Part shown: piece by piece, positions 19,981-64,000 of the stretch
How the letters are laid out: each line of letters starts with the position of its first letter
Numbering within the stretch: the stretch's first letter is position 1
Source of the DNA: an uncultured Gammaproteobacteria bacterium
Lineage (GTDB): Bacteria; Patescibacteriota; Microgenomatia; Daviesbacterales; UBA10151
DNA: 64,000 nt
Reading direction: 5' to 3'
Assembly: GCA_964393525.1 (NCBI GenBank)
Contig: CAYMTV010000002.1
Coordinates: forward strand, 23,001-87,000
Program-made: the position numbers and the translations under genes
Notes under the pieces: generated by a model
The model's input: the letters and a program-made list of their open reading frames with translations, nothing else
Told to the model about the DNA's origin: nothing
Database searches by the model: none

Positions 19981-20634
19981 TTAGACAGCACCCTTACCCA
20001 TAAGTACTGCAGGAATAGTTTTTAAAATTATATAGATATCAAAAAGAATCGATCTTCTTTGAACATATTGGGCATCCATCTCGACTCTTTTATCAAAATT
20101 AATCTCAGATCTGCCCGATACTTGCCAAACTCCTGTCAGGCCAGGTTTGGCAGAAAGGATAATTTTAACAAACTCTTTAGAACTTGGGTATTTTTTCTGC
20201 TGGTCTTCCAGTTCAAACGGGTAATATGCCCTAGGTCCAACAAGTGTCATATCTCCTTCTAAAATATTGATAAACTGAGGAAATTCGTCAACCGAGAACT
20301 TTCTAATAAATTTTCCCACTTTGGTAATTCTCGGATCATCCGGGATTTTATAGCTGTTTTGCTTATATTGTTTTAGAAGTTGGGGGTTTTTATGAAGGAG
20401 CTCTTGGGCTCCCTGAACCATTGAGCGGAATTTATACATCTTAAAAAGCTTTCCGTGTTTACCAACACGCATCGGGGTATCGGCCATGATCGGCCCTTTT
20501 GAATTAATTTTTATGGCAATAGCAGCAAGGAATAATACAGGAGAAAAAATAACTAGCCCTACTACTGACCCCACAATATCCATCAACCTTTTAACTACGT
20601 CATAAAACATATTTTCAAAGTTTAATCTGTTCAA
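19981..20634 (-). CDS. Polyprenyl-phosphate sugar-1-phosphate transferase (small Bac_transf/PglC/WbaP-type initiating phosphoglycosyl transferase)
   Basis: Re-entrant helix followed by a KFRSM motif and DEFPQFINILEGDMTLVGPRA. Confidence 0.85.
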   Translation of the reverse strand: MNRLNFENMFYDVVKRLMDIVGSVVGLVIFSPVLFLAAIAIKINSKGPIMADTPMRVGKHGKLFKMYKFRSMVQGAQELLHKNPQLLKQYKQNSYKIPDDPRITKVGKFIRKFSVDEFPQFINILEGDMTLVGPRAYYPFELEDQQKKYPSSKEFVKIILSAKPGLTGVWQVSGRSEINFDKRVEMDAQYVQRRSILFDIYIILKTIPAVLMGKGAV

Positions 20635-21682
20635 TAAAGTTTAGCAAATTTTTTTTAAAAATTTCTTTGCTGAATTTTTCGGCATTCTCCCGGCATTTTT
20701 CAGGGTTAATACTCAAAGATCTAAATTTGTTAATAGCCATAATTAAACTTCCAACTTCTTGTCTGTTAAAAAATACTCCGGTTTCTCCTTTCTTTACTGT
20801 CTCCAATGCTCCACCTCTTTTAAATGCAATAACCGGCTTACCCATGGCCTGGGCTTCTATCGCAGTTAAACCAAAATCTTCCTCCCCTGTAATAATCAAA
20901 GCTTTGCATCCCGCCAGTAAATTTATCAACAATCTTTCCGATGCACTTTTTATAAATTCAATATTTGAAGTGGCACTCCCTTTTAAGAAATTCAGCTGTG
21001 GACCCTGGCCGACAATAATTAACCTGTCACCTATCTTATTAAACAACCTTACTGCCAAATATATTCTTTTATACCTGTTGAGCCGGGATATTATTAAAAA
21101 GTATCCGCCATCAAAACTTTCATATTTATTGTATTTTTCTAAATCGACAAAAGGATATAAGACTTCACTTTCTTTTTTATAAATTTTTTTGATTCTTTTT
21201 TTTGCGTTTTTTGATCCTGCTAAATAAAAATCCGCCCTGTTTGATGTAATCTGATCATAAACTTTTAAAAAACTGATTAAGGGAGTGAGTAATTTTGAAA
21301 CTTTCTCTCCTGATAACCCCCAAATAAACCTGGGCGGTGTGTGACAGTAACTTATATGGACGGTCTCCGGTTTGGTGATTATAGATTTTGCAAATCTGGT
21401 GGTATGAGAAATAACTAAATCAAACTTAGAAAAATCAAACTGTTCAAATGCAATTGGATAAAGCGGTAAAAGCGGTTTATAAAGACTTCTCCAGCCCGGA
21501 ATGTTTTGCATAAAAGAAGTTACAATTTTTTTCCCGGAGAAGTTTTCGGCTATGAACTTATTTTTTTCATCATAAACGGCAGTAAAAATTGGAGCATCCG
21601 GAAAGACTTCTGAGATTGCCAGCAAAACTTTTTCAGCTCCACCCCACTGGACTAAATCATCATGCACCAAAGCTATGCGCAT
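20615..21682 (-). CDS. GT4-family (GT-B) glycosyltransferase
   Basis: EX7E region EDFGLTAIEAQAMGKPVIAF; two-domain GT-B layout. Confidence 0.85.
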   Translation of the reverse strand: MRIALVHDDLVQWGGAEKVLLAISEVFPDAPIFTAVYDEKNKFIAENFSGKKIVTSFMQNIPGWRSLYKPLLPLYPIAFEQFDFSKFDLVISHTTRFAKSIITKPETVHISYCHTPPRFIWGLSGEKVSKLLTPLISFLKVYDQITSNRADFYLAGSKNAKKRIKKIYKKESEVLYPFVDLEKYNKYESFDGGYFLIISRLNRYKRIYLAVRLFNKIGDRLIIVGQGPQLNFLKGSATSNIEFIKSASERLLINLLAGCKALIITGEEDFGLTAIEAQAMGKPVIAFKRGGALETVKKGETGVFFNRQEVGSLIMAINKFRSLSINPEKCRENAEKFSKEIFKKNLLNFIEQIKL

Positions 21683-21699
21683 GATATCATTCTACCATT

Positions 21700-22632
21700 A
21701 TGAGCGACTACCATACCCCAGTTATGTTAAGTGAAGTTTTGGAGTATTTAGAAGTGCAAAAAGACCAGTGGTATATAGACTGTAATTTGGGGGGTGGAGG
21801 ACATACTGAAGGGATTTTAAAAAAAGGTGGGAAAGTTTTGGGGATAGATTTAGATCCTGATGCAATTTTAGAAGTGGTAAAAAACCATGATTTAACTAGA
21901 CAATATTCTCACGATCGTGAACTTTTTGTCTCAGAGGATTTGATTATAATCCAAGATAATTTTAAAAATATTTCTGATATCGTTGCTGTTACTCAAGAAG
22001 CAATCTCTAAACCAATTCGAATTCGTGGAATTTTATTTGATTTAGGCGTTTCTACCCATCAATTAGAGGAAGCGGAAAGAGGTTTTAGTTTTAACTTGGA
22101 TGCTCCATTGGACATGCGGATGGATAAATCCTTTACTATTTCGGCAAAGGATCTAGTAAACGGGCTTCATGAAAAAGAGTTGGCGGAGCTTTTTTGGAAA
22201 CTGGGTGAAGAAAATTTTTCAAGACCTATTGCTAAAAAGATAATTGAGTATCGAAAAACAAAATTGATTGAAACTACTAATGAGCTGGCAAATATTATTT
22301 TATCTGTCAGAAGGAGGAGCCCTTCAGATAGAACCCATCCTGCAACCAGAGTTTTCCAGGCCCTAAGAATTGCAGTAAATGATGAGTTAAACTCGCTTAG
22401 GGAAGCTTTACCCAAGGCTTTTGAGGTCTTGGAAAAAGGTGGCAGACTAGTTGTAATTAGTTTCCACTCTTTGGAAGATAGAATTGTTAAAAATTACTTC
22501 CGTGACTGGGAAATGGAGAAGAAAGCCAAAGTCCTTACTGATAAACCAATGGAACCAACTGAAGATGAAGTTTCCCAAAACCCCAGGGCAAGATCAGGTA
22601 AGTTAAGAGCTATTGAAAAAGTTTCCATTTAA
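21700..22632 (+). CDS. rsmH: 16S rRNA m4C1402 methyltransferase RsmH (MraW)
   Basis: MSDYHTPVMLSEVLEYL...DCNLGGGGHTEGIL (SAM-binding GGGGH); C-terminal FHSLEDRIVK motif. Confidence 0.93.
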   Translation: MSDYHTPVMLSEVLEYLEVQKDQWYIDCNLGGGGHTEGILKKGGKVLGIDLDPDAILEVVKNHDLTRQYSHDRELFVSEDLIIIQDNFKNISDIVAVTQEAISKPIRIRGILFDLGVSTHQLEEAERGFSFNLDAPLDMRMDKSFTISAKDLVNGLHEKELAELFWKLGEENFSRPIAKKIIEYRKTKLIETTNELANIILSVRRRSPSDRTHPATRVFQALRIAVNDELNSLREALPKAFEVLEKGGRLVVISFHSLEDRIVKNYFRDWEMEKKAKVLTDKPMEPTEDEVSQNPRARSGKLRAIEKVSI

Positions 22633-22652
22633 TGTTGGAATACAAATCCTAA

Positions 22653-23075
22653 ATGGTTAATGAGATATTACAATACGGCAAGAAAATTACCGGAGATTGG
22701 AATTTTTCTTTTTCTGGAAGGGAAAGATTAGCTTCTCTGGTAATCTTAATGCCAACTGGAATTGCAGATTTATCACTCAGATCCATGCAAAGTGGCCCCG
22801 AGTTTGTTACAAGTTTTGGACATGATATTATAACGGGTTTTGCTAGTTACCATTTATTTAAATTTATGGGCATAAACCCTAAAAGTAAATCCTATAATGC
22901 GGTAATGGGGTTTATTATGCCTTCAACTTATGAAATATCACAAGGTTTAGGTTTATGGAAAGGTACATTTGATTGGAATGATTTCCTGGCTTATGGAGCG
23001 GGTGTAGCCATAGGAGTCGGGATAGACTTAACTTTACATAGAGCGGGTCATACTCAATTTCAGTTAGAAGCGTAG
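22653..23075 (+). CDS. Hypothetical protein (140 aa)
   Basis: Open frame with genome-typical composition directly downstream of rsmH. No TM or recognisable motif. Its 3' end overlaps a convergent GT4 gene. Confidence 0.3.
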   Translation: MVNEILQYGKKITGDWNFSFSGRERLASLVILMPTGIADLSLRSMQSGPEFVTSFGHDIITGFASYHLFKFMGINPKSKSYNAVMGFIMPSTYEISQGLGLWKGTFDWNDFLAYGAGVAIGVGIDLTLHRAGHTQFQLEA

Positions 23076-24229
23076 ATTTTTAAAGTTTTTCCTGCTAAAT
23101 CTTTCCAATTGAATTGCTTATACCTTTTTTGTCCTTTCTTAATTAATTCACTCCTTACTGTTTCACTATTTAATACATCCATTATTTTTTGCTCCATGTC
23201 ACTAGATTCCTCGCGGAGTTTATCTCGAGCGAAGCCGAGAGACTCGGAATGACGAGGAAGGAGAGGATCAAAATACAAAGCAGCATTTCCGCCAATTTCC
23301 GGAAGCGAACCCTTATCTGAAGAAACCACAGGGCATTTGCATGCCATTGCTTCAAGAAGTGGGATACCGAACCCTTCTTCAAATGACGGCATTACAAAAC
23401 ACTTGGCGCTTTTGTATAAACAGATCAAATCCTTATCATCAATATACCCAGTGTAAATAATATCTTTTTGTTTGAACTCCTTTTTAATCCTTTCCCAAAA
23501 ATAATGGTCACTACCAGATAAAACTAATTGTAGATATTGGTAATTGTTTCTTAAATTTAAAAAGGTTTTTATTAACCCTTCCACATTTTTATGCGGATGG
23601 GCATTCCCAACATAAAAGATGAACGGTGGTTTAATTTGATATTTTTTTAAAGCTTTCCCAATTTCACTTTCTGTACAACAAGTCGCGGCCGCGATTAGTT
23701 GTTCTTCAACCCCCTCATAAGTTACTGCTATTTTATCTTGGTTAACATCCCATTTGTTTATTATTTGTTGTTTGACAAAATTAGATGGAACAATAACTTT
23801 TTGAGACTTCTTTAAGGCTGAGTTAAATACTTTTTTATAGCCCCATTGCTTTAATTTATAAACTAAAGGGTTTAAGGTCGTAGCTCTCCTCATCTGGAAA
23901 TGCTCATGGATTAGGTCGTGAATTGTAACAACAAATTTACCTCTGTATAAAATTGGAACATTAAAATGTGGGAAATGAACTAAATCTAATTTATATTTAT
24001 TTAAAAGGATTGGGAATTTAATTTGTTCTGATACTCCATACCATTTAAAATTGGCTAAAACTTTATGAAACTTCTTGTTATGATAGTCTAGTCTATAATA
24101 CTCGGGATGTGCTAAAAAAATATAATACTCATTTTTAGTATCTAACTTTTGTAAATTAAAAACTAAATTTCTGATGTATCTTCCAACTCCGGATTGCGAC
24201 CATAACCTGGCATCAATTCCTATGCGCAT
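23060..24229 (-). CDS. GT4-family glycosyltransferase
   Basis: FEEGFGIPLLEAMACKCPVVSSDKGSLPEIGGNAALYFDP. Carries an unusual GC-rich palindromic segment near its 3' end. Confidence 0.85.
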   Translation of the reverse strand: MRIGIDARLWSQSGVGRYIRNLVFNLQKLDTKNEYYIFLAHPEYYRLDYHNKKFHKVLANFKWYGVSEQIKFPILLNKYKLDLVHFPHFNVPILYRGKFVVTIHDLIHEHFQMRRATTLNPLVYKLKQWGYKKVFNSALKKSQKVIVPSNFVKQQIINKWDVNQDKIAVTYEGVEEQLIAAATCCTESEIGKALKKYQIKPPFIFYVGNAHPHKNVEGLIKTFLNLRNNYQYLQLVLSGSDHYFWERIKKEFKQKDIIYTGYIDDKDLICLYKSAKCFVMPSFEEGFGIPLLEAMACKCPVVSSDKGSLPEIGGNAALYFDPLLPRHSESLGFARDKLREESSDMEQKIMDVLNSETVRSELIKKGQKRYKQFNWKDLAGKTLKIYASN

Positions 24230-25102
24230 TTAAACCACCATTTTCCTTCTTGCCTGCCACTCTCTTAAATTGATCCCAAGATATACCAGCCAGTTTATAA
24301 AGAAAGGGTATTTTTTTTCGTAATGCTTTTTATAAAAAGTCCTCATTGACTCATAAAAAGACTCAAACGCCTTAAGTTTTGTTTGTTTATCAGCCTGGGC
24401 TATATCCTGAGAATGTTTCTTAAGTCCTGAAGATACTCCTTTTTGGTGGATTACTTCCACAGAAGGTTCGTAAATAATTTTATAACCCGACTTTTTGATC
24501 CGAAAACAAAGATCAATATCTTCAGCATACAAAAAATAATCCTCATCAAATGACCCAACCTGATCCAAAACCGATTTTCTGGTAAAGAAGAAAGCTCCAG
24601 CTATACTGTCTACTTCATGAGTTTTAGTCATATCTTTATAAGTTAAATGATAAAGGCTATCGTTTTGAAAAAAGTGATAAAGAAATGAGGCCCAAGGAGT
24701 AGGAAAACCGCGGTGAGCCGTAAGATCAATACTCCCATTTCCCAAAACAATTTTGCAAGTTGCAGCACCGATTTTTACATCCGAATTCATTAGCCCAATC
24801 ATCTTAGACAAAACACCCTTTTGAATTTTCGTGTCGGGGTTTAGAAGAAGAACATATTCGGTTTTAACAGCCCTGAGTGCCAAATTATTGGCTTTACCGA
24901 AACCCAAATTCAGGCGGTTTACAATAAAAGCTACGTCATTAAATTTTTCCTTAGCCTTTTTTATACTGTCATCGGTTGAGGCATTATCGACAACATAAGT
25001 GAAAATATCTGCCTCATCCGAAACTTTTTCTATCGACTCAAGGCATTCGAGTAAATAATCACCCGAATTAAAATTAACAATAATAATAGAAAGTTCAGCC
25101 AT
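24230..25102 (-). CDS. GT2-family (GT-A) glycosyltransferase
   Basis: LSIIIVNFNSGDYL...VVDNASTDDS; DxD-type YAEDIDL. Confidence 0.85.
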   Translation of the reverse strand: MAELSIIIVNFNSGDYLLECLESIEKVSDEADIFTYVVDNASTDDSIKKAKEKFNDVAFIVNRLNLGFGKANNLALRAVKTEYVLLLNPDTKIQKGVLSKMIGLMNSDVKIGAATCKIVLGNGSIDLTAHRGFPTPWASFLYHFFQNDSLYHLTYKDMTKTHEVDSIAGAFFFTRKSVLDQVGSFDEDYFLYAEDIDLCFRIKKSGYKIIYEPSVEVIHQKGVSSGLKKHSQDIAQADKQTKLKAFESFYESMRTFYKKHYEKKYPFFINWLVYLGINLREWQARRKMVV

Positions 25103-26282
25103 GACTTACCTCAATATAGACTCCGTTCAATTTTTGGCTTATCGGTCCCCAATCATATTTTTGACTCACCATTTTTTTGGCATTTTCGGCAAGCTTGTCC
25201 CTTCTTGCTTTGTCTCTTAAAAGCTCCACAGTTGCATCGGCAATTTCCTTGTAACCGTCTCTGATTAATACTTCTTTACCGTCTTCCGCCTCAGTCCCTC
25301 CTATGCCGATCGAGGTTGTTATAACCGGAAGACCGGAGGCAAAAGCCTCAAAATTTTTATATCTGGTGCCCCCCGAGCCATAGATCGGAGCCACCAGCAC
25401 GGTTGCCATCTGGTAGGCTTCCCTGACATCCTCAACTTCATCAACCCTGACATCTTTGCCAGAGAATTTCGAGAAAAAATTTTGGGCGTCTTTTCCGATA
25501 ATCCAAAGTTTGGCATCTGAAACTTCTTTTTTTACCCTTGGCCAAATCCGGTTATAAAGTATTTCAACAGCTTCCCGATTTTGTAACCAGGTGAAGTTGC
25601 CTAGATATAGGATAACGGGTATTTTTGGTTTATCAACTAACTTCTTGGCAAAACTCTCGCTGTCTACGCCGTTTGGGACAATATCAACATCAAGTGAGGG
25701 AATCTGTGATTGCATGATTTTTTTATCTTCATCTGACATGGCAACTACTTTGGCAGCCTGTTTCCAATATCTTGATTCCCAATATTTCATTTTGGCTACG
25801 TCAATATACAAAAGAGGTTTCAATATGGGTATCTTAAAATTATCAACATAATGCTGGTAAACTCTATACTCAATAGTTTGATCAACTAAAACGATTGGAA
25901 TATTAGTTTTTGGGATATGGGGCATTACATAAAAAGTTTCAGCATGGATAAGACCGAATTTTTCTACCGCTAATTTTTTTTCAATAGCTCTTCTCTCACC
26001 GGTTGCCCAATTTCTGATCACCAAAAATGGATAGAAGCTAAATCCGGTGGTTAAAATATTAGTGAGTGTCCAGGGTTTCTCTGGACGCCGAAAAACTTGA
26101 ACTTCTTTACAGAATTTTTCAAGCTCAGGTATATAATTTCTCTCGTGATCTTTCTTAACCAGGCAAAATAGGGTTATCTCATGACCCAGCTCTGATATTC
26201 TTTTAATCAGGTTGTATGAGCGGGTCTGGCCTCCCGTCACCAGAGGATAAGGTAAGTAAGGCGTTAACATTAAAATCTTCAT
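25095..26282 (-). CDS. GT4-family glycosyltransferase
   Basis: EAFASGLPVITTSIGIGGTEAEDGKEVL; GT-B fold. Confidence 0.85.
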   Translation of the reverse strand: MKILMLTPYLPYPLVTGGQTRSYNLIKRISELGHEITLFCLVKKDHERNYIPELEKFCKEVQVFRRPEKPWTLTNILTTGFSFYPFLVIRNWATGERRAIEKKLAVEKFGLIHAETFYVMPHIPKTNIPIVLVDQTIEYRVYQHYVDNFKIPILKPLLYIDVAKMKYWESRYWKQAAKVVAMSDEDKKIMQSQIPSLDVDIVPNGVDSESFAKKLVDKPKIPVILYLGNFTWLQNREAVEILYNRIWPRVKKEVSDAKLWIIGKDAQNFFSKFSGKDVRVDEVEDVREAYQMATVLVAPIYGSGGTRYKNFEAFASGLPVITTSIGIGGTEAEDGKEVLIRDGYKEIADATVELLRDKARRDKLAENAKKMVSQKYDWGPISQKLNGVYIEVSHG

Positions 26283-27421
26283 TGTTGTAATAATTTAAAC
26301 AGTCTTTTTTTTAATAAATTTGACTCATTTAATACCAATATGCCTATTCCAATGTTAATCCAAAAACTTTTAAATAGTACTGTCTCCCCGGTGCCCCAAC
26401 TTCCGGTGCTTAAAAAATTGTAATAATTTACAACCATCATAAACCCAATCAAATAAATCAACACCCACGATGAAGTTTTTAAATTTAAAAATGGCAAAAA
26501 CATATATAACCAAGTGTAATACCATAGTTGCCCGCCTTTAATTTGCAAGTATATAAATATTGCTAAACATAAAAATTTAAAAAAGATAGATCTTAAATTT
26601 TCTTTTAGAAAGATTGCTGGCAACGCCAGGAAACTTATATATTTTACTAGAACGGAAGCCAAAAATGAAAGCCAGCCCAAAATTGGGCGCTTTTTGGATA
26701 AAGCAAACATTGCTAAAAAAAAGAGACTAATCATTATTAAATCATTGTGTGAATTCATAAGTAGTTCTATTATCAAAAGAGGATTCAAAAACCACAAGGC
26801 AAAAACTTTTTTTTCTTGAGTAAGTTTGTAAAGAACTACACCAGATAAAAAGAAAACTAAAGCATTCAAAAGTTTTATTCCAAAAAAATTTAAAATAATT
26901 CTGCTTCCTGAAAATAAAATCGTCGGAATTAGGTAATAGAATAAAGATATCGGTCCGTATTGATAAGTACTGTCTACATTACGCGTAAAGCTTAATGCAA
27001 AATCTTCTTCTATAAATTCTATAGGAAGTACTGTAAATGGATTTACATGATACTGCCAAACCATCTTAGAATAAAACATATAGGAGAAAATATCATGAGA
27101 CAAAAAGGGATAGGAAAAAGAAAAAATTAAGGTGGTAATTGCAAACACTAGGAGTAATTTTTTTAAACTAAACTGTTTTGAAAATTTCGTTAAAAAGATT
27201 AATTGTAGAACAAAAAGTATAAAAGCTAAACTTATAAAGATGGGTGCCAAAAATTCCCTATTGGTATTTCCAAAATCCCTCAAGTTATGCAGGAAATTTA
27301 ACTGCTCGCGGGTTTGAGAAAGTGTCAATATTAAACCAAAATCCACCCAAAAATATGAAAATATAAAAAAGCCAGTCGTAGAAAGAATGAGTGCTGCCAA
27401 AAAAAGGTTGGGCTTACTCAT
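26279..27421 (-). CDS. Polytopic membrane protein, DUF2029/GT87-like (polyprenol-phosphate-dependent mannosyltransferase-like GT-C)
   Basis: About 10 TM helices. First-loop motif LSHDIFSYMFYSKMV resembles the S-x-D-x-x-x-Y signature of GT87/DUF2029. Confidence 0.5.
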   Translation of the reverse strand: MSKPNLFLAALILSTTGFFIFSYFWVDFGLILTLSQTREQLNFLHNLRDFGNTNREFLAPIFISLAFILFVLQLIFLTKFSKQFSLKKLLLVFAITTLIFSFSYPFLSHDIFSYMFYSKMVWQYHVNPFTVLPIEFIEEDFALSFTRNVDSTYQYGPISLFYYLIPTILFSGSRIILNFFGIKLLNALVFFLSGVVLYKLTQEKKVFALWFLNPLLIIELLMNSHNDLIMISLFFLAMFALSKKRPILGWLSFLASVLVKYISFLALPAIFLKENLRSIFFKFLCLAIFIYLQIKGGQLWYYTWLYMFLPFLNLKTSSWVLIYLIGFMMVVNYYNFLSTGSWGTGETVLFKSFWINIGIGILVLNESNLLKKRLFKLLQQ

Positions 27422-27426
27422 GACGC

Positions 27427-28929
27427 TTAGGGAGGCTCTTGCCTTTCCTCAGGTTTATATTTTTGATAGTAATCGGGCTGCTCTTTTGTTAAATCAATAA
27501 TCACAAACTTAGGATTTTGTTCAATAACCGTAAATTTTTTCATTAGCCAGTTTGTTTTGGCGTCGTAATTAACAGAGATATAGTAATTTACGCCGAACCT
27601 GTTTTTTAAATCGTCAATCGGGAAAGCCACCACCGGCCAGCCCGGTCTGTTGACATGATAAAGGAAGGATGTATCTCCCTGATAAGGTGCCACGACTACA
27701 GCATCTTTTGGTAAAATCTTATCCGCGTACTCGCCGGCGATCACTATTGAGTTGTTATTAATTTGATAAAGTCCCTTTACTTCATACCATCCAAAATATA
27801 AAGTTAAAACCAAAAACAGTAAGGCCAGAGGAATGGTCCAAATTCTTGGCAGAAACTGTGGTATTCCACCAATTAATGTCGTAAAACCTCTGGCTGTAAA
27901 TATAACCAGAGCCGGAACAATTAGAGTCTGATAATAATCGTGGGTTACATTCCCTGTTGCAAAAACTATTAAGTATATAAATGATGCTAAAGCCAAAAGG
28001 TGCAAAAGCCACCCTTCTTTTACCTCAGGTTTTTTCAGAAGTCCCAGAAAAAACAGGAATGAACCGGTAACTGTTAAAATCTCTCGGCCAAAACGGTCAC
28101 CTAAAATCCATCTAAAAAATGCCGGACGAAATCTTATTCCATTCCCATTGAGTAACCAGTTTGAAGCAGGTATTCCCTCCGGATGCTGACTTATCCAAAA
28201 TCTCCAGGCAATAAACGGGATTATTGAAGGAATAAACCAAAGAGCATATCTTGATGGAATTGGAAACAATCTTCCCTCCTTTTTATAGTAAACATATATC
28301 AGAGGGAGGAGATAAAAAATGGCAGTCGGTTTTGTCAAAAATGCCAAGGTTGTAAATATTACTGCCCCAAGATAAAGCTTCATTTTATCCTCTCGGATCC
28401 AACGGTCCGTGAAGTAAAACATACCGAGGCAAAAGAATACTAAAGAAGGTTCAGGTAAGACTACCCGGGAGAAAAAAATGTTAAAAGGTAAAAGTCCAAA
28501 AAGAAAAGCCGAAAGCATGGCTGTGGCTCTCCCAAAATACCTTTTTGCAATCAAATAAACAAAAATTAGCGAGCCCAGAGAAAACAGCACCGATGTCAGC
28601 CTGGCAAATCTTATATCAACACCACCGTTTAAAAGGTATGCAAAATAAACCAGGCTGTTATATATTGGAAATTCAACCAGCCGGAAGCGTTCGGTGTTTG
28701 GGTTGGGATTTTCCGCAACCCCTGACATATCATCATACCTTGGTAAAAAAGGATTAAAGCCTTCCTTTAAGAAATTTCTTGATACCGCTGCGGTGTCTGC
28801 TTGTCTCCAGGCGTGCCAGTCAGCGACAGCACTTTCAATCTTATATAACCTGACTGCAAATGCCAAGATGACTATTAGAATCAACCAGAAATATTCAGAT
28901 TTAAGAACTTTAAAAATATAAGTAATCAT
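27427..28929 (-). CDS. GT-C fold glycosyltransferase, ArnT/PMT (GT39/GT83)-like
   Basis: Polytopic. First periplasmic loop DWHAWRQADTAAVSRNF matches the acidic DE/RxxD loop of ArnT/PMT_2. C-terminal soluble domain ~90 aa. Confidence 0.6.
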   Translation of the reverse strand: MITYIFKVLKSEYFWLILIVILAFAVRLYKIESAVADWHAWRQADTAAVSRNFLKEGFNPFLPRYDDMSGVAENPNPNTERFRLVEFPIYNSLVYFAYLLNGGVDIRFARLTSVLFSLGSLIFVYLIAKRYFGRATAMLSAFLFGLLPFNIFFSRVVLPEPSLVFFCLGMFYFTDRWIREDKMKLYLGAVIFTTLAFLTKPTAIFYLLPLIYVYYKKEGRLFPIPSRYALWFIPSIIPFIAWRFWISQHPEGIPASNWLLNGNGIRFRPAFFRWILGDRFGREILTVTGSFLFFLGLLKKPEVKEGWLLHLLALASFIYLIVFATGNVTHDYYQTLIVPALVIFTARGFTTLIGGIPQFLPRIWTIPLALLFLVLTLYFGWYEVKGLYQINNNSIVIAGEYADKILPKDAVVVAPYQGDTSFLYHVNRPGWPVVAFPIDDLKNRFGVNYYISVNYDAKTNWLMKKFTVIEQNPKFVIIDLTKEQPDYYQKYKPEERQEPP

Positions 28930-47753: not shown

Positions 47754-47797
47754 GATATAATCCGAGTGCAGCTAAATTCTAAGCTTTTGTTTCTTAA

Positions 47798-53456: not shown

Positions 53457-53459
53457 ATT

Positions 53460-54194: not shown

Positions 54195-54195
54195 A

Positions 54196-57247: not shown

Positions 57248-59379
57248 GATTTTAAAGCAAACAATATCTTCAGAGTCTTATTACCGGAGTATATTAAACT
57301 CAAAATTAAAGTAGCAAGTAATATTAAAAGTGGTAGTTTTGGTATATCCCAATAGATTAGGTATTTAAACCACCAAAAATCAGGGGTTCTTTCATAAACT
57401 TGAGTATGTAATTCCCAAAATCTCCACGGGTCAGTAATGCTTTCTCCGTATGTATTATATTTATATCCCATCGCCGTACCTAAGGAAGAAACATAAGGAA
57501 AATCCAGGCTTTCTAAATTGATAGGGGTATCATTAATTGAAAAAGCTATTAACCCTAAGATTTGCTTATGGTTTTTTATAACAGTTTGGTCTTTATAGTT
57601 TACATTAATCACAAGTTTATTATCCTTATCTTTTAAAAGTGATTGTTTAACCGGTAAAACAAAAATATTTCTTTCCTTTGCCTCAAGGGTTAACGGCTGA
57701 TCCGATAATGACTGACCATTAAGAGAGATATTTACTATCGCTTGGGAACCTGACTCCGTAATCGGATGATTTATAAGTCCGAAGGTTAATTTTTTAACCG
57801 TGTCCTTTTTAAAATTATCAAATGATATATAACCTGTTCCTTCAATTACCCTCCATCTCTCCGGTCCAACCGGAAATGAAAAATCTATACCGTCATAGAA
57901 TTTAGCATTATATTTACCATGGTCGATAGTTTGCGGGATGGATTGCGGAAGGGCTCTTAACTTTTTTGACATCTGTATTATAGGCGAAAACCTGGGGATA
58001 AAATTGCTGTAAGTATGGGTGGTAAACTCTGTAGCATTGACAAAAAAATTAGGTTGTAAATCATGGTATTTAATCTGGTAAGGCATAACCACTCCAAGCA
58101 TATTAATATAAAAACCTAAAATCAGAAGCGGAAGGAAAATAAATAGTTTCTGATACCTGGATAGATTTTTAAAAATGCTACCGATTATCAATACCCCAAA
58201 AGGCAAAAGAGGTATTAAATATCTGGGACCCCAGCTCGATTCACCATGCCAGAGTCCGGCAATTCCCTGATCAGGGCCGCCCACACTATACTGAGTAGCA
58301 TAAAAAAGTACATAAATTGCTGATATGGCAATGAAAACCAGAGTCTCGTTTAAAGCTATTTTTTTGATCTTGTTCCAGAATAAGATAATTAGTAGAAAGA
58401 TCGGGGAATATATAAAGATACTCCTCCCGGAAGAGAATAATTGACCATACAACCCTTCAAAAAAGATTATCTTAGGAAGTCGTTGTAAGGGGATTGCCGT
58501 CCTGCTTGCCAGAACAAAAGGGTTTGCCAGGTTTTCAGTCCCCCCTGCCCTTAGATTTTCAAACCAGAAATAGACTACTAAAAGAGGTAAAAATCCAAGC
58601 GTAAAAATAAGCAGATTTTTTAATAAATGGTTTTTCCGAAAGCCCGTTAAGAAGTCTGTTACTGATGAAAGGCTAAATTTAGGTTTTGATAACAAAAGAA
58701 AATATAACCCTAAAGGGATTGCAGAAAGTATAAATGTCTGGTTATAAGTAATACTTACCATCCCAAAAGAGGCCCCGGCAAATATTAAAAACAACTTTTT
58801 TTTAGTTTGAAAATATTTTTTTATAAGGAAAAATGCTAACACTAAAAAAGCTGTAAACATCATATGAGGGAAGGAATATTTAGCGTATGGAAGTAGATTG
58901 GTTGTAAACAACCCTGCAAAACTTATTAATAATGCCTGTTTTTTGGATAATCCCAATTCTAAAAGATACAAAAATATGGTTACTCCTAAAACAGCAGCAA
59001 AAAATCCATTAGTAAATGATGCTGTTAAAAGTATTAACCAGTCATTTTCTAAAGGAAAATGCACCGGAGGGGATATGTTATAGATCTTATAGACCAGGTC
59101 AGTTACCGCCACAGCTGGCAACATCGCTAAGGAAAAACCTAATCCAGTAGGACTATAGGTATTGCCATCTTTTCCTAAATAAGTACTTAGGTGTACGTTC
59201 TCCCTCCTATTATATTCATATACTGGTGCAGTTGGCTTCCCTTTGTAATAAATATTTCTGGCAACAGCCAAATACTGAAAACCATCCTGTGAATCAATAA
59301 CCCCGGAAGAAAGAAGAGAAAAAGTAGCTAATAGGAAGAAGAAAAAATATATCAGGAGCTTTTTCACGACTTTTTCCAT
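57244..59379 (-). CDS. GT-C fold membrane glycosyltransferase-like protein (711 aa), tandem paralog 2
   Basis: Same architecture as 55067-57247. The N-terminal 210 aa and C-terminal ~55 aa are near-identical to the neighbour; the central extracytoplasmic domain has diverged. Confidence 0.5.
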   Translation of the reverse strand: MEKVVKKLLIYFFFFLLATFSLLSSGVIDSQDGFQYLAVARNIYYKGKPTAPVYEYNRRENVHLSTYLGKDGNTYSPTGLGFSLAMLPAVAVTDLVYKIYNISPPVHFPLENDWLILLTASFTNGFFAAVLGVTIFLYLLELGLSKKQALLISFAGLFTTNLLPYAKYSFPHMMFTAFLVLAFFLIKKYFQTKKKLFLIFAGASFGMVSITYNQTFILSAIPLGLYFLLLSKPKFSLSSVTDFLTGFRKNHLLKNLLIFTLGFLPLLVVYFWFENLRAGGTENLANPFVLASRTAIPLQRLPKIIFFEGLYGQLFSSGRSIFIYSPIFLLIILFWNKIKKIALNETLVFIAISAIYVLFYATQYSVGGPDQGIAGLWHGESSWGPRYLIPLLPFGVLIIGSIFKNLSRYQKLFIFLPLLILGFYINMLGVVMPYQIKYHDLQPNFFVNATEFTTHTYSNFIPRFSPIIQMSKKLRALPQSIPQTIDHGKYNAKFYDGIDFSFPVGPERWRVIEGTGYISFDNFKKDTVKKLTFGLINHPITESGSQAIVNISLNGQSLSDQPLTLEAKERNIFVLPVKQSLLKDKDNKLVINVNYKDQTVIKNHKQILGLIAFSINDTPINLESLDFPYVSSLGTAMGYKYNTYGESITDPWRFWELHTQVYERTPDFWWFKYLIYWDIPKLPLLILLATLILSLIYSGNKTLKILFALKS
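58732..59096. repeat. 365-bp near-identical segment, copy 2 (partner of 56612-56976)
   Basis: See copy 1. Confidence 0.9.
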
Positions 59380-60899
59380 GATAGCATTAACTTTGCAAGC
59401 TTTATATCATAAATCTTAAGTCTGAATCCAAGACCTGCGAAAATTACCGTATAGATTATTCCGCTTAAAATAAATTCAAACCAATTCTTGGGTGAAAAAT
59501 GAATTAACCTTATTAGTATGAAAAACGCCAGGGAAAAGATAAAAATTTTTAGGTAAAACTGATACGGTATCTTAAAATCCACAAACTTTTTAATTATAGA
59601 AGTGAATACAATACAAAGCCCGAATCCAGCGAAAGTACTGGTAATAGCTGCACCAATAACCCCAAATTGCCAAATTAAGATTATGTTTAAGCAAATATTT
59701 ATAACTGCCACAATTGTTAATACACGCAACCTTTCTTTAACCTTTCCAATCCCTAATGTAATAATCCCTGTAATTGAAGAAGTCAACACGCCAATATAAG
59801 CTAAAGAAAATATCGACAGGGAGATTTCTAAAAAATCCAGCCATTTTAGACCAAAAATCAAAGCTATTGTAGAGGATGGAAACATAATAACAAACAATGA
59901 AAAATAGACACCGATAAAGGGGATAATTTCGTAAACTTTACTTATTAGGTACCTTAACTTTTTTTTCTCTCCCTCGTAAAGGTGTGAAACCAAGGGAAAG
60001 AGGATGCTGTTTAATGGCGAAAACAATACGAGGGGGATTGAGGCAATTGGAACAACAACATTATAAATTCCTACCTCCTTAACCCCTTTAAGTAACGTTA
60101 AAAGAAAAATATCTGATGACACAAGCAATGAATAAATAAAAGTGGTTAAAAAAGCCGGTAAGGCGTATTTGTATATCGATATAAATATTTGATGGTCCCA
60201 AGACAGGTTATTGGCTGATAATATCCGGTGTCTAGTCCAAAGCAAATACAAAAAAACGACAGTTATAATTGAATACCCAAAAATCCAGGACAGGGCATAA
60301 AAGATGGGCGCATTTAGGTCTACTGCCAGAAAAGTCAAAGAGAAAAATAAAACTAAAACTGACCTTAAGACAATTATTAGTGAGTAGTATTTTGGTTTTT
60401 GCAGTCCGGTAAAAATCTGTAGAATACTATTTAAGATGCTGTTAATTATTAAAAACACACAGAAAACATAAATTAGATACTCGCTTCCAGAAACTTTAAA
60501 ATAGTTCTTAGCTAAAAATGGCGCCAGTATTATCAAAATAAGGGAAATTATCATCGAGACTGCAAATTGGATAATTTGGCCATATGTATAGGCATTCCAG
60601 ACTTTTTTATACTTTTTTGACTTAAAGTATTTGGGGATAAAGTAAACAATAGCTTCCCCAAAACCCAAATCCGCGTGGACAGAAATTATGCTAAAAAAAC
60701 CAAATACCGCATAAAACAAACCGTAATCTTCAACCGACAGTGACCTAGAATATAACACCCTGATAAAATAGGCCAACACTGCCCCTAAAAAGCTTAGAAC
60801 TAGAACTATTACACTCCCCCTAATAACATTTTCTGAAAAAGACATATTGCCAAGTATAACTAACTTAAACACTTTTTGTACATTAATTATTTTCCACAA
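59364..60899 (-). CDS. wzx: Wzx-like polysaccharide/oligosaccharide flippase (MOP superfamily)
   Basis: About 14 TM helices with a Polysacc_synt-type N-terminus (IRGSVIVLVLSFLGAVLAYFIRVLYSRSLSVEDYGLFYAVFGF). The true start is probably the internal Met (MSFSEN) near 60845. Confidence 0.7.
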   Translation of the reverse strand: MWKIINVQKVFKLVILGNMSFSENVIRGSVIVLVLSFLGAVLAYFIRVLYSRSLSVEDYGLFYAVFGFFSIISVHADLGFGEAIVYFIPKYFKSKKYKKVWNAYTYGQIIQFAVSMIISLILIILAPFLAKNYFKVSGSEYLIYVFCVFLIINSILNSILQIFTGLQKPKYYSLIIVLRSVLVLFFSLTFLAVDLNAPIFYALSWIFGYSIITVVFLYLLWTRHRILSANNLSWDHQIFISIYKYALPAFLTTFIYSLLVSSDIFLLTLLKGVKEVGIYNVVVPIASIPLVLFSPLNSILFPLVSHLYEGEKKKLRYLISKVYEIIPFIGVYFSLFVIMFPSSTIALIFGLKWLDFLEISLSIFSLAYIGVLTSSITGIITLGIGKVKERLRVLTIVAVINICLNIILIWQFGVIGAAITSTFAGFGLCIVFTSIIKKFVDFKIPYQFYLKIFIFSLAFFILIRLIHFSPKNWFEFILSGIIYTVIFAGLGFRLKIYDIKLAKLMLSWKKS

Positions 60900-60918: not shown

Positions 60919-61770
60919 ATGTTTCTTAAGCAAGCTGTAGCTATTGCCTTAATTACCTATTATCCAAAATGGTACGTAGGTAAATTAAAAAAAATCTCTA
61001 ATACCGATAAAGTCAGGGGCGATTTGGCATTGGAATTTATCCAAAAAGCAATTAATTTGGGTTATCAAGTCGTTGCAGTAGATGGTCACAGTTCTAAAAG
61101 CTTTCTAAAACAGTTAAACCAGTTTTCAGAGCTTAAAATTATTAAACGACGTGGCCATAAACGATCCCCTGCCAAAAGACAGGCTTTTAAAGCAGCTTCA
61201 AACCTTTCAGAAGTTAAAGTAATTATTGCTACTGAGGCTGAGAAAGTTTCTTTAATTGACTTTCTTGAAGTCTTAGTAAAACCGGTCCTTGAAGAAAAAG
61301 TAGATATAGTTGTTCCAAAAAGGCAGGATGACTTATTTAGGGAAACTTATCCGGATTACATGTACGAATCAGAGATGGAAGGGAATAAGCTCTGCAATGA
61401 GCAACTTAAGCTTAGTGGAATTCTTCCCAAAGATGCAAATGAATTAGATTTATTTTTTGGACCAAGGGTATTTAAAAATGATAAAAAAGTTTTAGCACTT
61501 TTTTTAAGGAAATTTCTTTTCTCTAAAGAGCATTTTTTAGGTGAATATTTTGATCCTGAGGAACTTGCCAATACTCAATTTTCCCCAGTAATTATAGCTT
61601 TAAAAAAAGGCTTTAAGGTAAAAAGTGTTACTGTGCCTTTTTCTTACCCAAAGGTACAAAAGGAAAACGAAAGCATAGGCGCCAGAGAAGCTTTTGAGGG
61701 AAAAAGGGGATCTCAAAGAATGGGACTTTTACTAGAATTGATGCATTTATTGAATTACTTAAAGAAATGA
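60919..61770 (+). CDS. Hypothetical protein with an alternating beta/alpha (Rossmann-like) pattern, possibly an NDP-sugar-transferase-like fold
   Basis: 283 aa with no TM. Contains VVAVDGHSS and VDIVVP hydrophobic beta-strand-like segments. No confident family motif. Confidence 0.35.
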   Translation: MFLKQAVAIALITYYPKWYVGKLKKISNTDKVRGDLALEFIQKAINLGYQVVAVDGHSSKSFLKQLNQFSELKIIKRRGHKRSPAKRQAFKAASNLSEVKVIIATEAEKVSLIDFLEVLVKPVLEEKVDIVVPKRQDDLFRETYPDYMYESEMEGNKLCNEQLKLSGILPKDANELDLFFGPRVFKNDKKVLALFLRKFLFSKEHFLGEYFDPEELANTQFSPVIIALKKGFKVKSVTVPFSYPKVQKENESIGAREAFEGKRGSQRMGLLLELMHLLNYLKK

Positions 61771-61828: not shown

Positions 61829-63049
61829 TTAAGATTTGTTTTCTATATCTTTAAACTCAGGTGTCAGAAAAACTCTTGCCTCTATTTCATCAGCAATTCT
61901 TTCAGAAGCTTTGCCATCTGGTTTATATCTTTCCATTCTTCTTTGCAGCAATCTTTTATAATCATCATCCAAAAGGACACCATTTAGCACATTTCTCATA
62001 TCTTCTAAATTAGTAATAAGTGGACTAGTTTTATCCTCAATAACTGGCACCCAAAGTCCTTCCATAGCTGGATGTTCTCTGAGAATTTGTGGTATAACTA
62101 CACTTCCAACAGGCACTTGCCAAGCAGCAGCCTGTAATGCGATGGTTGATCTCTCCTGAAATAAGGCACTTGAGGCTGCTATTACTAGGTTAGCATCTGA
62201 TACTAAATCTGAGGTTGCATAAATTAGTCGCCTGGAAAAAGGACTTAATAATTCTTGGTAAACTCTAATATTTTCTTTGTCAGCAGGGTGAAATCTCACT
62301 GCCAACATCCAATCCAATAATTCTAAATCTCTTAACCCAGAAAGAAAAACTTTAAAAGATTCTACTGTCCCTTTTCCAACTTGCCCAAACCAGGTGATTA
62401 AATCAACGTTTTTTGGCACTCCTAACTTATTCCTAATCTCTTCCCAAATCTTGGTTTTATCTGCATTTGCGATACTATCAAAAGCCGGCTGGCCTAGAGC
62501 CAATACTCTATCAGAAGTTATTGGATAACCTTCAAGCTTTAAAAGTTCAGCTTCCTTTGCCTGCTCATTCATGACAAATAAAATTCCGGGAGCGGCGTTT
62601 GGATTAGTTCTGATTTTTTCACCCAGAGAATCTATATATGCAGCCGGATAATCCTCAACTGCAAAGGTTGGGATACCTCTTTCCCTGCCAAATGCGTTTA
62701 AAGTAGCATCAAAATCAGGGTTAGAAGACATGCCGGTAATCATTGCATCTGGCTTCAATCTTTCTACTCTGGACAAAGGATTAACTGACCTTGAGCTATT
62801 AAATCCTGCAGAACGAAAAATACCTTCAGCTCTTCCTCTTAACAGCCCATAGACTTCCCAACCTCTTCTATTTAGTTCCAACGCAACTGGCAGGATAGCG
62901 TTAGATTGACCAGTATCCATAGCTCCAACAACTGCTATCTTAGGCTCTCTTTCCTTATTATTTGGAGCAGAAATTAAAAGTAATTTTGATTCCTGAAAAC
63001 CTGGGTCGAAAAAGCCAAAAAATTCTGGTGACAAATTAATTCTACTCAT
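61829..63049 (-). CDS. GT-B-like protein resembling the TagB/TagF (Glyphos_transf) polyol-phosphate transferase / capsule family
   Basis: C-terminal RFHP followed by TSDLVSDANLVIAASSALFQERSTIALQAAAWQVPV resembles the TagF HP motif plus D..L...D.LITDYSS..fD...L.KPVI. N-terminal Rossmann-like KIAVVGAMDTG. Confidence 0.4.
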   Translation of the reverse strand: MSRINLSPEFFGFFDPGFQESKLLLISAPNNKEREPKIAVVGAMDTGQSNAILPVALELNRRGWEVYGLLRGRAEGIFRSAGFNSSRSVNPLSRVERLKPDAMITGMSSNPDFDATLNAFGRERGIPTFAVEDYPAAYIDSLGEKIRTNPNAAPGILFVMNEQAKEAELLKLEGYPITSDRVLALGQPAFDSIANADKTKIWEEIRNKLGVPKNVDLITWFGQVGKGTVESFKVFLSGLRDLELLDWMLAVRFHPADKENIRVYQELLSPFSRRLIYATSDLVSDANLVIAASSALFQERSTIALQAAAWQVPVGSVVIPQILREHPAMEGLWVPVIEDKTSPLITNLEDMRNVLNGVLLDDDYKRLLQRRMERYKPDGKASERIADEIEARVFLTPEFKDIENKS

Positions 63050-63067
63050 AAATTCTATATTATAAGT

Positions 63068-64000
63068 TCAAGCATATGTGGTGGAAGCCTCACTTTTTTG
63101 GAGAACGTTAAATAAATCCTCAACTTTAGTTTGTTTCTTTTTTGTCCCTCTTTTATATTTATTTAGGCGCTTTTTATAGATTTTATTGTCTGGCAGGATT
63201 ATATTAAATAGCCCCGCATCGATCATATGTTCTGCCTCCTCATCGGTAAAAAGCCTCTCGGTCATCTTTTCCTTATCTCTTGCACCAACAATTTTTAAAC
63301 CAATTTTTTTACCATTGCTATACCTTTTAATAAGTTCACTGGCTAATTCATAAATATTATACTTAGGCATCTTTAAAACAAATATCTCGCTCCCTAGCAT
63401 CTTTGATGTAGCCAAAAATACCAAATGAACCGCTTCCTGAATGCTCATGAAGTACCTTTCCATATTTTTATCAGTCACTAGTACTGGCCCGCCTTTTTTT
63501 ATCTGCTCCATCCAAAGTGGCAAAACCGAGCCTCTCGAGTTTATTACATTTCCAAATCTGACAACAGCAAATTTAATTTCAGGGTTGCCAGAATAATTGG
63601 GGGCAGAAACTACCATTCTTTCCATCATCAGCTTGGTAATTCCCATAAAAGTATTCGGATAGACTGCTTTGTCGGTCGAGATTGCTACCATTTTTTCTAC
63701 CCTGTGGTCGATCGATAAGTCAATGACGTTTTGGGTGCCAACAACATTAGTTTTTATTGCCTCAAAAGGATTGTCTTCGCAAAAAGGGACATGTTTTAAA
63801 GCTGCAGCATGAAAGACGATGTCAATATTATTAAACGCCCTGTCTAAACGATCCTTATCTCGGATATCACCGATTAGAAATCGCAGAATTTTTAAGTTTT
63901 TTGCAAGCTGGGAAAATTCCTGACGAAGGTAAAATTGTTTAGTCTCATCCCTTGAGAAAATTCTAATTTGTTTTGGGTTGAATTTAAGAAGTTGTCTCAC
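63068..64000 (-). CDS. UDP-GlcNAc 4,6-dehydratase family (PseB/FlaA1/CapD/PglF-like), C-terminal ~310 aa. The gene continues beyond the window end.
   Basis: IRIFSRDETKQ...IGDIRD...DIVFHAAALKHVPFCEDNPFEAIKTNVVGTQNV...STDKAVYPNTFMGITK is close to PseB-type extended SDR dehydratases. Confidence 0.8.
   Translation of the reverse strand: MRQLLKFNPKQIRIFSRDETKQFYLRQEFSQLAKNLKILRFLIGDIRDKDRLDRAFNNIDIVFHAAALKHVPFCEDNPFEAIKTNVVGTQNVIDLSIDHRVEKMVAISTDKAVYPNTFMGITKLMMERMVVSAPNYSGNPEIKFAVVRFGNVINSRGSVLPLWMEQIKKGGPVLVTDKNMERYFMSIQEAVHLVFLATSKMLGSEIFVLKMPKYNIYELASELIKRYSNGKKIGLKIVGARDKEKMTERLFTDEEAEHMIDAGLFNIILPDNKIYKKRLNKYKRGTKKKQTKVEDLFNVLQKSEASTTYA

Follow-up and report, generated by a model that had tools for sequence, protein, structure and literature searches.

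A GT-C-rich glycan locus linked to the dcw cluster as a candidate envelope glycopolymer pathway in a Daviesbacteria-like CPR bacterium

The genes for mycobacterial arabinogalactan and lipoarabinomannan (LAM) are clustered. Galactan is exported by Wzm/Wzt and is then arabinosylated by AftA/B/C and EmbA/B, which are glycosyltransferases (GTs) of the GT-C type (PMC13649706). The loci for rhamnose-containing cell-wall polysaccharides (Rha-CWPS) in Lactococcus and Streptococcus (cwps, gac, rgp) combine an ABC-exported rhamnan with a Wzx-family flippase, a GacI-type GT-A enzyme and the GT-C enzymes WpsJ, WpsI and GacL (PMC9574508). The S-layer glycan (slg) clusters of Geobacillus stearothermophilus and Paenibacillus alvei contain a WbaP-type polyprenyl-phosphate phosphoglycosyltransferase (PGT), Wzm/Wzt, a methyl cap and an O-oligosaccharyltransferase (O-OTase) with a Wzy_C domain (PMC2943079). 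Here we compare these systems with a surface-glycan locus in a 64-kb stretch of DNA (contig CAYMTV010000002.1, positions 23,001 to 87,000; hereafter the window). The organism is a groundwater-type, Daviesbacteria-like Microgenomates bacterium of the Candidate Phyla Radiation (CPR) with a full set of peptidoglycan genes. CPR bacteria are uncultivated and ultra-small and are thought to be host-attached, and their surface chemistry is essentially uncharacterised. We estimate a probability of roughly 60% that the locus is a core cell-envelope glycopolymer pathway of this monoderm, peptidoglycan-containing bacterium, inherited together with its division and cell wall (dcw) cluster. Family, fold, topology, gene order and conservation are observed, and from these we infer all steps of the pathway.

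The window contains 60 open reading frames (ORFs) of at least 100 amino acids (aa). Its biggest functional block is the glycan locus, which occupies about 46 kb from 17953 to beyond 64000 and consists of densely packed, often overlapping ORFs. Of the 38 ORFs in 19981-64000 we count 34 as glycan-related, which is far beyond chance; the other four are rsmH, which is unrelated, and three ORFs without known function. We searched Pfam and NCBIfam and judged the scores against the gathering or equivalog cut-offs of the families. These searches reproduced almost every gene call of an earlier note, in which nearly all genes from 19981 on had been read as glycan-related. They also bear out its general picture of a single, extended surface-glycan locus in which an ABC exporter is combined with a flippase of the Wzx type, a Wzy_C protein, numerous GT-C enzymes and a pair of Dpm1-like synthases.

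The locus is real and vertically inherited, and throughout a broad clade it is physically linked to the dcw cluster. For three of its proteins there are hundreds of relatives, and the named ones belong to Ca. Daviesbacteria, Woesebacteria, Levybacteria and Pacebacteria. The closest loci are found in Daviesbacteria/Microgenomates metagenome-assembled genomes (MAGs) on single contigs of 1.10-1.13 Mb; a genome of about 1.1 Mb fits the reduced-genome bacterium postulated before. L037 and L035, which overlap and stem from the same population, together contain collinear orthologues of 24 of the 38 window ORFs with 40-74% amino-acid identity. Their order starts with Wzx, GT-C, GT-C, Wzt, Wzm, GT2, GT4, an AftA-like GT-C, a Dpm1-like GT2, proteins of 549 and 362 aa and PMT_2. 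It continues with two extra proteins, a 613-aa protein, GT4, GT4, an acetyltransferase, a 181-aa protein, Wzy_C, PMT_2, three GT4 and the PGT, and this order is collinear with the window from 60899 to 19981. A core made up of a 524-aa GT4, a 473-aa GT2, Wzm, Wzt, a 700-aa GT-C and the MOP flippase can be recognised in at least 14 loci of Microgenomates.

Conservation on the dcw side of the locus is equally broad. A metagenome scan seeded with DUF4012, the gene at this end, found the PGT directly upstream of DUF4012 in 27 of 27 contigs. Downstream of it the order recO, class II aminoacyl-tRNA synthetase (aaRS), mraZ, rsmH and ftsI was found in 19 contigs, down to 34% identity of DUF4012. The whole block WzyC-PMT_2-GT4s-PGT-DUF4012-recO-aaRS-mraZ-ftsI is conserved in 19-27 independent metagenome contigs. 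The PGT and one GT4 hold about 70% identity across relatives, and a left half as constant as this speaks for a core wall polymer and not for a hypervariable, O-antigen-like structure. Some elements are specific to the window, namely an FkbM gene at its present position, a module at 44197-49579 (a sugar-nucleotide trio, a GT2 and a GT-C), three GT2 genes, an MptB-like GT-C and a relocated rsmH. Eleven of the Microgenomates-type loci in the comparison (L004, L009, L011-L016, L018, L020 and L022) come from MAG records titled "uncultured Gammaproteobacteria bacterium"; the title of these TPA assemblies looks like a placeholder or a mislabel. A search of the literature on GT-C or mannosyltransferase loci in CPR bacteria or Daviesbacteria gave nothing relevant, and no description of the present locus was found.

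The dcw cluster itself (2075-14679, minus strand) encodes FtsZ, FtsA, an FtsQ-like protein, MurG, FtsW, MraY, Mur ligases, a short MurB-like ORF, a class B penicillin-binding protein (PBP), a small ORF with one transmembrane (TM) helix and MraZ. Since full peptidoglycan genes, i.e. MurG, FtsW, MraY, Mur ligases and the class B PBP, are encoded in the same window, the earlier suggestion that the locus makes a peptidoglycan-substitute surface layer is ruled out. The locus had also been described as directly abutting the dcw cluster. This is not literally so: mraZ (14290-14679, minus), at the end nearest the glycan locus, is separated from the PGT at 19981 by 5.3 kb with four genes, which encode a one-TM protein of unknown function, the class II aaRS, RecO and DUF4012. 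What stands is the physical coupling, because this order is kept across the broad clade. For CPR bacteria in general, an envelope resembling that of Gram-positives has been suggested (PMC6744442).

We propose the DUF4012 gene (17953-19845, minus; Pfam DUF4012 84.5 bits) as the left boundary of the locus. It encodes a membrane-anchored protein of 630 aa with one TM helix, from a family that is enriched in CPR bacteria and Gram-positives (PMC6744442). A PGT and DUF4012 are also neighbours in the exopolysaccharide (EPS) cluster of Bifidobacterium longum (PMC5412050). This shared neighbourhood, together with the invariable position of DUF4012 right after the PGT, suggests that the protein has a so far unrecognised accessory role in PGT-initiated glycan assembly.

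In the most economical model for the locus, glycans would be assembled on lipid carriers in two lines that meet outside the membrane. In the first, an undecaprenyl-diphosphate-linked oligosaccharide would be built by the PGT, GT4 and GT2 enzymes and one acetyltransferase, which are encoded within an array of 19 genes on the minus strand (41671 to 23060 and 21682 to 19981). The initiating PGT (19981-20634, minus) is a small enzyme of the WbaP/PglC type with only the catalytic domain (Bac_transf 203.8 bits; EPS_sugtrans/WbaP C-terminal region), and it is the single copy for the entire locus. Next to it is a GT4 (20615-21682; Glycos_transf_1 79.4 bits) with a collinear orthologue of 55% identity in L035. 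Further GT4 genes of the array lie at 23060-24229, with orthologues in relatives, at 25095-26282, with about 70% identity in relatives, and at 33450-34565 (Glycos_transf_1 137 bits); a fifth starts at 34562. The GT2 gene at 24230-25102 is found in only some relatives, while those at 30355-31233 and 32566-33453 are specific to the window. All of these were recognised by family matches and are on the minus strand, as is the hexapeptide acetyltransferase at 31875-32525, with an orthologue of 64% identity.

The GT4 gene starting at 34562 carries a defect. What looked like a GT4 of 199 aa is the C-terminal portion of a longer GT4 gene (334 aa; 34562-35566, minus), which is split by one in-frame TGA (35297-35299; context HSSE*TQP). 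The orthologue in L035 is unbroken (337 aa). The window gene is a pseudogene or a strain variant, or it contains a sequencing error. A recoding of TGA was rejected, because TGA is an ordinary stop in the window and terminates 20 of 53 ordinary ORFs.

UDP-sugars would be tailored by the products of a three-gene operon together with a PseB-like dehydratase. The operon (44197-47065, plus) encodes a UDP-GlcNAc 3-dehydrogenase-like protein (GFO/IDH), a hexapeptide N-acetyltransferase and a DegT aminotransferase according to Pfam and NCBIfam; its predicted product is a 2,3-diacetamido sugar. The PseB/FnlA-like UDP-GlcNAc 4,6-dehydratase gene (63068-64000, minus; Polysacc_synt_2 317 bits, PseB 291 bits) is cut by the window end. 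Beside it lies a gene for a TagF-like protein of the glycerophosphotransferase family (61829-63049, minus; Glyphos_transf 24.5 bits versus a cut-off of 22.1), which is not kept in relatives.

After completion the oligosaccharide would be moved outward by the MOP flippase and then polymerised or ligated by the Wzy_C protein. The flippase is of the Wzx type (59364-60899, minus; Polysacc_synt 77.5 bits, Polysacc_synt_3 61.5 bits). Its gene and those of the 700-aa GT-C proteins overlap on the same strand by 16 nt and 4 nt; the linkage occurs in 14 loci, and the genes are apparently co-transcribed. The Wzy_C-family protein (28926-30362, minus) has 10 TM helices and a large loop and could be a polymerase, a ligase or an O-OTase. 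Its Wzy_C score of 28.5 bits compares with a cut-off of 31.7, the orthologue in L035 is annotated as Wzy_C, and a sequence search against the PDB found no match. The Wzy_C domain occurs also in ligases and O-OTases (PMC2943079). Conserved beside it is a 189-aa protein (31233-31802, minus) with N- and C-terminal TM helices and without a family match; a 181-aa orthologue with 40% identity is found at the same position in L035. This protein is a possible co-polymerase.

The second chain would be made by a GT2/GT4 pair, exported by Wzm/Wzt and, in this genome, O-methylated by FkbM. The pair (49585-52577, minus) consists of a 473-aa GT2 with two C-terminal TM helices and a 524-aa GT4; both are conserved partners of the ABC exporter in 11-14 related loci, with 67-71% identity in L037. 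Wzm, Wzt and the FkbM methyltransferase follow on the plus strand (52671-55065; ABC2_membrane 62.9 bits, ABC_tran 83.2 bits, FkbM 100.7 bits). The best NCBIfam matches of the 244-aa Wzt are TagH (216.8 bits) and a galactan Wzt (181 bits), both under the equivalog cut-offs. The FkbM gene (54196-55065, plus) lies directly downstream of wzt on the same strand with a gap of 1 nt.

In these gene groups the calls of the earlier note were largely recovered. Its initiating PGT, its Wzm/Wzt with FkbM, its Wzx-like flippase, its PseB-like and TagF-like genes and its two acetyltransferases are all matched. The O-antigen ligase/Wzy-like protein agrees through its sub-threshold score and the Wzy_C match of its orthologue. 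Where about six GT4 and six GT2 enzymes had been expected, there are six GT4 genes (starting at 20615, 23060, 25095, 33450, 34562 and 49585) and six clear GT2 genes (24230, 30355, 32566, 41644, 47004 and 51156), plus one weak GT2-like ORF (60919-61770, plus) below the gathering score (20.7 bits versus a cut-off of 23.3). The genes of the proposed UDP-2,3-diacetamido-sugar trio are present, and the product itself is deduced from them.

Two small GT2 enzymes that resemble Dol-P-Man synthase and ArnC would load sugars onto polyprenyl phosphate. In a phmmer search of the PDB the first (41644-42381, plus; Dpm1/ArnC/GtrB-like, 71% identity in L035) matched the Dol-P-Man synthase from Pyrococcus (5mlz, E 6.6e-17) over residues 4-240, i.e. 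its whole length, followed by ArnC (2e-12) and GtrB (6e-8). The second (47004-47753, minus) is 28% identical to it, with PpgS as best NCBIfam match (E 3.4e-13). The best NCBIfam matches of both are polyprenyl-phosphate sugar transferases (AglJ, ArnC, PgfS, PpgS), in agreement with the earlier assignment of two Dpm1-like polyprenol-phosphate sugar synthases. Each gene is the neighbour of a GT-C gene, so that two GT2/GT-C pairs (41644-44153 and 47004-49579), each with one of two AftA-like paralogues, stand on either side of the amino-sugar operon. This adjacency hints that the GT-C enzymes may use lipid-phosphate-linked sugar donors. In four non-CPR genomes a homologue of 41644-42381 with 41-44% identity stands directly in front of a gene distantly homologous to the 700-aa GT-C.

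The number of GT-C candidates is nine, in addition to the separate Wzy_C protein. The earlier count of at least eight holds as far as the polytopic GT-C-like proteins are concerned; it had, however, treated 55067-59379 as one gene, and this region contains two paralogous ORFs of 726 and 711 aa with 67% identity. As GT-C features we considered a polytopic topology with 8-13 TM helices, a modified DXD or other acidic motif in the first extracytoplasmic loop, and a resemblance in structure or profile to GT-C enzymes of solved structure (ArnT, PglB/AglB, PMT, AftA). Hydropathy predicts 7-10 TM helices for all nine, and the AlphaFold2 models that were obtained show 11-13 membrane helices. An acidic motif (WFDE, IDSQDG, IDWLDYP, SWYDE, EPYPD, NFDG, ADW..QAD or WVDFG) directly follows TM1 in every ORF. 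The loop-1 aspartates D32, D41 and D58 are invariant in families A1 (the 700-aa proteins), A2 and A5 (the 564-aa protein), respectively.

Three of the nine pass a Pfam threshold. Two are PMT_2 proteins: an ArnT/PMT-like one (27427-28929, minus; PMT_2 54.6 bits, PMT 32.7 bits), which is conserved in relatives, and one with the WFDE motif after TM1 (37416-38822, minus; PMT_2 56.2 bits, Agl23-like E 3e-12). The third (38824-39975, minus) belongs to the PIG-V/GT76-like mannosyltransferases (Mannosyl_trans2 38 bits versus a cut-off of 22.4). For the GT-C families, searches of the PDB by sequence, with single proteins and with profiles, gave no match, and it was the comparison of folds and of profiles with profiles that worked. 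By fold two proteins are AftA-like and belong to a DUF6311-type family (42378-44153, minus; and its paralogue at 47798-49579, plus, with 31% identity, E 5e-70). The tandem paralogues (55067-59379, minus) have an ArnT-like membrane domain, a beta-sandwich resembling a carbohydrate-binding module (CBM) and a C-terminal TM helix.

The 564-aa protein (39977-41671, minus) has 10 TM helices and belongs to a small, CPR-centred family with only 400 clusters among 1.84 billion representatives. Its profile matches that of the 711-aa family: in hhalign, a 39-sequence profile gave a probability of 94.2% and an E-value of 1.1e-7 over 318 columns, in a register that places D58 on D32 and the Arg-Tyr motif R369-Y370 on R386-Y387. 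A shallower first alignment of the 564-aa family had reached 56% probability, and the deeper one was used instead. The DUF6311-like family aligned insignificantly with the 700-aa family and weakly (25%) with the 564-aa family.

The weakest GT-C assignment is the 7-TM candidate at 26279-27421 (minus; GT87-like), with a sub-threshold match to MptA/MptB (NCBIfam MptA E 1.5e-9; MptB 35.3 bits versus a cut-off of 40). It sits between PMT_2 and a GT4 and is without an orthologue in about 100 related loci; it appears to be a window-specific insertion. In total, the assignment of each of the nine ORFs is backed by a family match, a structural match or a profile comparison. The unusual features of the locus are this density of GT-C enzymes and the CPR-restricted GT-C subfamilies.

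Outside the membrane the chains would be extended, branched or connected by the nine GT-C enzymes, with lipid-linked donors or the flipped oligosaccharide as substrates. The best candidates for a joining or decorating step, by analogy with WpsJ and GacL in Gram-positive wall polysaccharides, are the two 700-aa proteins, because their genes and the flippase gene overlap in the same orientation and because they carry the CBM-like domain, which suggests a glycan acceptor. The final acceptor may be peptidoglycan, a lipid or a protein, and the product correspondingly a wall-linked polymer, a branched lipoglycan or a protein O-glycan. A more far-reaching version of the model can be put forward only tentatively. 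It says that the main envelope polymer of Daviesbacteria, and beyond them of Microgenomates, is built largely outside the membrane, as a conserved, branched heteroglycan in which about nine GT-C enzymes act on an ABC-exported backbone, coupled to the division and cell-wall cluster; it would be the CPR counterpart of mycobacterial arabinogalactan. This version may rely on families that are nearly confined to CPR bacteria, namely the CBM-bearing 700-aa GT-C, the 564-aa GT-C and a TM protein with a DUF3863-like domain.

Several observations weigh against a single core envelope pathway. One GT4 gene is broken by a stop codon, and the Wzy_C score is under the Pfam cut-off. Pfam and NCBIfam recognise no Wzz or other polysaccharide co-polymerase (PCP) family among the window ORFs, so that the 189-aa two-TM protein is the sole candidate. 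No LCP ligase and no GtrA-type flippase was found in the window. The best NCBIfam match of the MOP protein is SpoVB, and an orthologue has a MurJ match in Pfam; it could be a lipid II flippase instead. Wzt (53460-54194, plus) consists of the nucleotide-binding domain and has no C-terminal carbohydrate-binding domain; the methylation is therefore probably not an export cap read by Wzt. Furthermore, FkbM is not present at this position in all relatives. Finally, strand switches divide 41644-64000 into nine or more transcription units, so that the modules may serve different products.

This last point leads to the rival that survives best, although we hold it to be rather improbable. The locus would be a glycan island of three to four independent pathways without a common product, for example a Wzx/Wzy heteropolysaccharide, an ABC-exported polymer and GtrB/GT-C decoration modules for other polymers such as teichoic acids. 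The strand switches just described fit this idea, as do the window-specific insertions (the 44197-49579 module, the three GT2, the MptB-like GT-C and FkbM), the TagH-like character of Wzt and the presence of a TagF-like gene. However, order and content are kept as a single block in relatives with 34-70% identity, there is one PGT for the whole locus, and the flippase gene, which has the same orientation as the GT-C genes and overlaps with them, lies beside Wzm/Wzt in at least 14 loci.

Somewhat less probable again is that the locus serves the O-glycosylation of secreted proteins in general, among them S-layer proteins and pilins. It would use Wzm/Wzt and/or the MOP flippase to export a lipid-linked glycan and the Wzy_C protein as O-OTase, and GT-C enzymes of the PMT_2 type would glycosylate proteins directly. 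S-layers have been reported on CPR cells, and pili as well (PMC6744442). The families of the Gram-positive S-layer clusters, i.e. the WbaP-type PGT, Wzm/Wzt, the methyl cap, the Wzy_C O-OTase (WsaB/WsfB) and a TagF-like protein (PMC2943079), are all present here, and several GT-C proteins show similarity to PMT/PMT_2. In the window, however, there is neither an S-layer nor a pilin gene. True protein O-mannosyltransferases contain MIR domains; the PMT_2 proteins of the window match only PMT/PMT_2 in Pfam, with no MIR domain detected. In addition, the CBM-like domain of the 700-aa proteins points to a glycan acceptor, and nine GT-C enzymes are far above the number in known protein-glycosylation systems.

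We consider it quite unlikely that the locus makes a membrane-anchored lipoglycan similar to lipomannan or LAM, which would be elongated outside by GT-C enzymes from polyprenyl-phosphate sugars. For such a product speak one MptA/MptB-like, one PIG-V-like and two AftA-like (by fold) GT-C proteins and the GT2 enzymes resembling Dol-P-Man synthase. Yet PimA/PimB-type or phosphatidylinositol-related genes were not recognised among the window ORFs, the MptB-like gene is found in no relative, and the PGT and the Wzy_C protein point to an undecaprenyl-diphosphate-linked assembly. An artefact, in the form of a chimeric assembly or of transporters mistaken for GT-C enzymes, both of which the earlier note had named as ways in which it could be wrong, has a negligible probability and nothing in its favour: the 24 ORFs collinear with a relative at 40-74% identity show that the assembly is not chimeric, the gene order agrees with that in independent assemblies made in several studies, a single NCBI contig of 93,397 bp accounts for all window proteins that were sampled, and family, fold and profile comparisons give the transporter idea no support.

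A few ORFs embedded in the locus do not belong to glycan families. The 16S rRNA methyltransferase gene rsmH (mraW; 21700-22632, plus; Methyltransf_5 319 bits) is absent from its canonical slot between mraZ and ftsL/ftsI and is inverted between two GT4 genes. Most relatives keep the canonical order mraZ-rsmH-ftsI, and the relocation occurs only in the window and in its closest relatives, L059 and L067. Next to it lies a small, weakly VanZ-like ORF (22653-23075, plus; VanZ 20 bits, below the cut-off). The third, which the earlier note does not mention, is a conserved member of the locus, a 614-aa protein (35588-37432, minus); a signal peptide is followed by an extracytoplasmic DUF3863-like domain of about 360 aa and by 6-7 C-terminal TM helices, and a sequence search against the PDB found no match. 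The relationship to DUF3863 is weak (12 of 21 family members, best E 5e-5). The family occurs Daviesbacteria-wide, and one member of 1064 aa (P0327) is fused to an N-terminal PMT_2 domain. Since this PMT_2 part is not similar to the neighbouring PMT_2 gene of the window, the fusion points no more than loosely to a functional connection.

Other properties of the window concern its composition and its flanks. The G+C content is 0.31-0.35 in the right half of the locus (38001-62000) and 0.35-0.45 in the dcw region; a low G+C content is frequent in surface-polysaccharide loci. In the dcw cluster, the MurB-like ORF (10180-10836, minus; 218 aa) has a single weak FAD_binding_4 match and shares 40 nt with the adjacent Mur ligase gene; it is possibly truncated or mis-started. 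The start of the window (1 to about 1990, minus), which at first sight is free of ORFs, is the 5' part of the isoleucyl-tRNA synthetase gene (ileS) running off the edge. Scans of the window for tRNA genes and Rfam families found nothing, and a scan for promoters and terminators was at chance (69 versus 66.7 expected and 17 versus 16.9 expected).

With this locus the Daviesbacteria-like lineage has a definite candidate, open to testing, for its main envelope glycopolymer. The uncharacterised GT-C subfamilies now have confident fold assignments, which opens them to biochemistry. If the polymer is indeed built largely outside the membrane, a locus of about 4% of a ~1.1-Mb genome would imply that it is central to an episymbiotic lifestyle. 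What distinguishes the locus is that it is a GT-C-rich, dcw-linked and clade-conserved envelope glycan locus with CPR-centred GT-C subfamilies. No concept is overturned, because components and assembly logic have precedents in Gram-positive wall polysaccharides and in mycobacteria. The earlier statement that no characterised system has this gene complement is thus overstated, since the same logic is found in the Rha-CWPS, S-layer glycan and arabinogalactan systems.

The likeness to the Rha-CWPS loci, which stand for "dual-chain" and four-component glycosylation (PMC9574508), comprises an ABC-exported backbone, a Wzx-family flippase, a GacI/WpsA-type GT-A for loading undecaprenyl phosphate with a sugar, and GT-C enzymes for decorating, polymerising or joining chains outside, all in one locus, and the organisms are in both cases monoderm with peptidoglycan. 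On the other hand, neither rmlABCD nor the rhamnosyltransferase families RgpA/B/F were recognised among the window ORFs, a GacJ-like activator or an LCP ligase was not seen in the window, and there are nine GT-C enzymes here as opposed to one to three there. The GT-C subfamilies are also unrelated in sequence, and the host is a CPR bacterium. The arabinogalactan/LAM machinery (Wzm/Wzt Rv3783/Rv3781, AftA-D, EmbA-C, MptA/B and Ppm1) follows the same logic of ABC export and subsequent GT-C action, but GlfT, DprE and Emb genes are missing here. With the slg clusters the locus shares a WbaP-type PGT, Wzm/Wzt, a methyltransferase, a Wzy_C-domain protein, a TagF-like gene and tightly overlapping ORFs; in contrast, slg clusters are much smaller and have at most one GT-C-type step, whereas in the 64 kb of the window no S-layer gene was recognised and no rml genes are nearby. 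The two GT2/GT-C pairs, each with a Dpm1/ArnC/GtrB-like GT2 beside its GT-C, recall the three-component Gtr and Arn modification systems (GtrA/GtrB/GtrC; ArnC/ArnT), and the aminotransferase/acetyltransferase operon between them recalls ArnB/ArnC/ArnT. GtrB and ArnC carry C-terminal TM helices, whereas none are predicted for the Dpm1-like GT2 enzymes here, and these systems differ also in their GtrA-type small flippase, which was not found in the window; one Wzx-family protein is present, encoded away from the Dpm1-like GT2 genes. Taken together, the locus works like the Rha-CWPS, slg and arabinogalactan systems and is a member of none of them.

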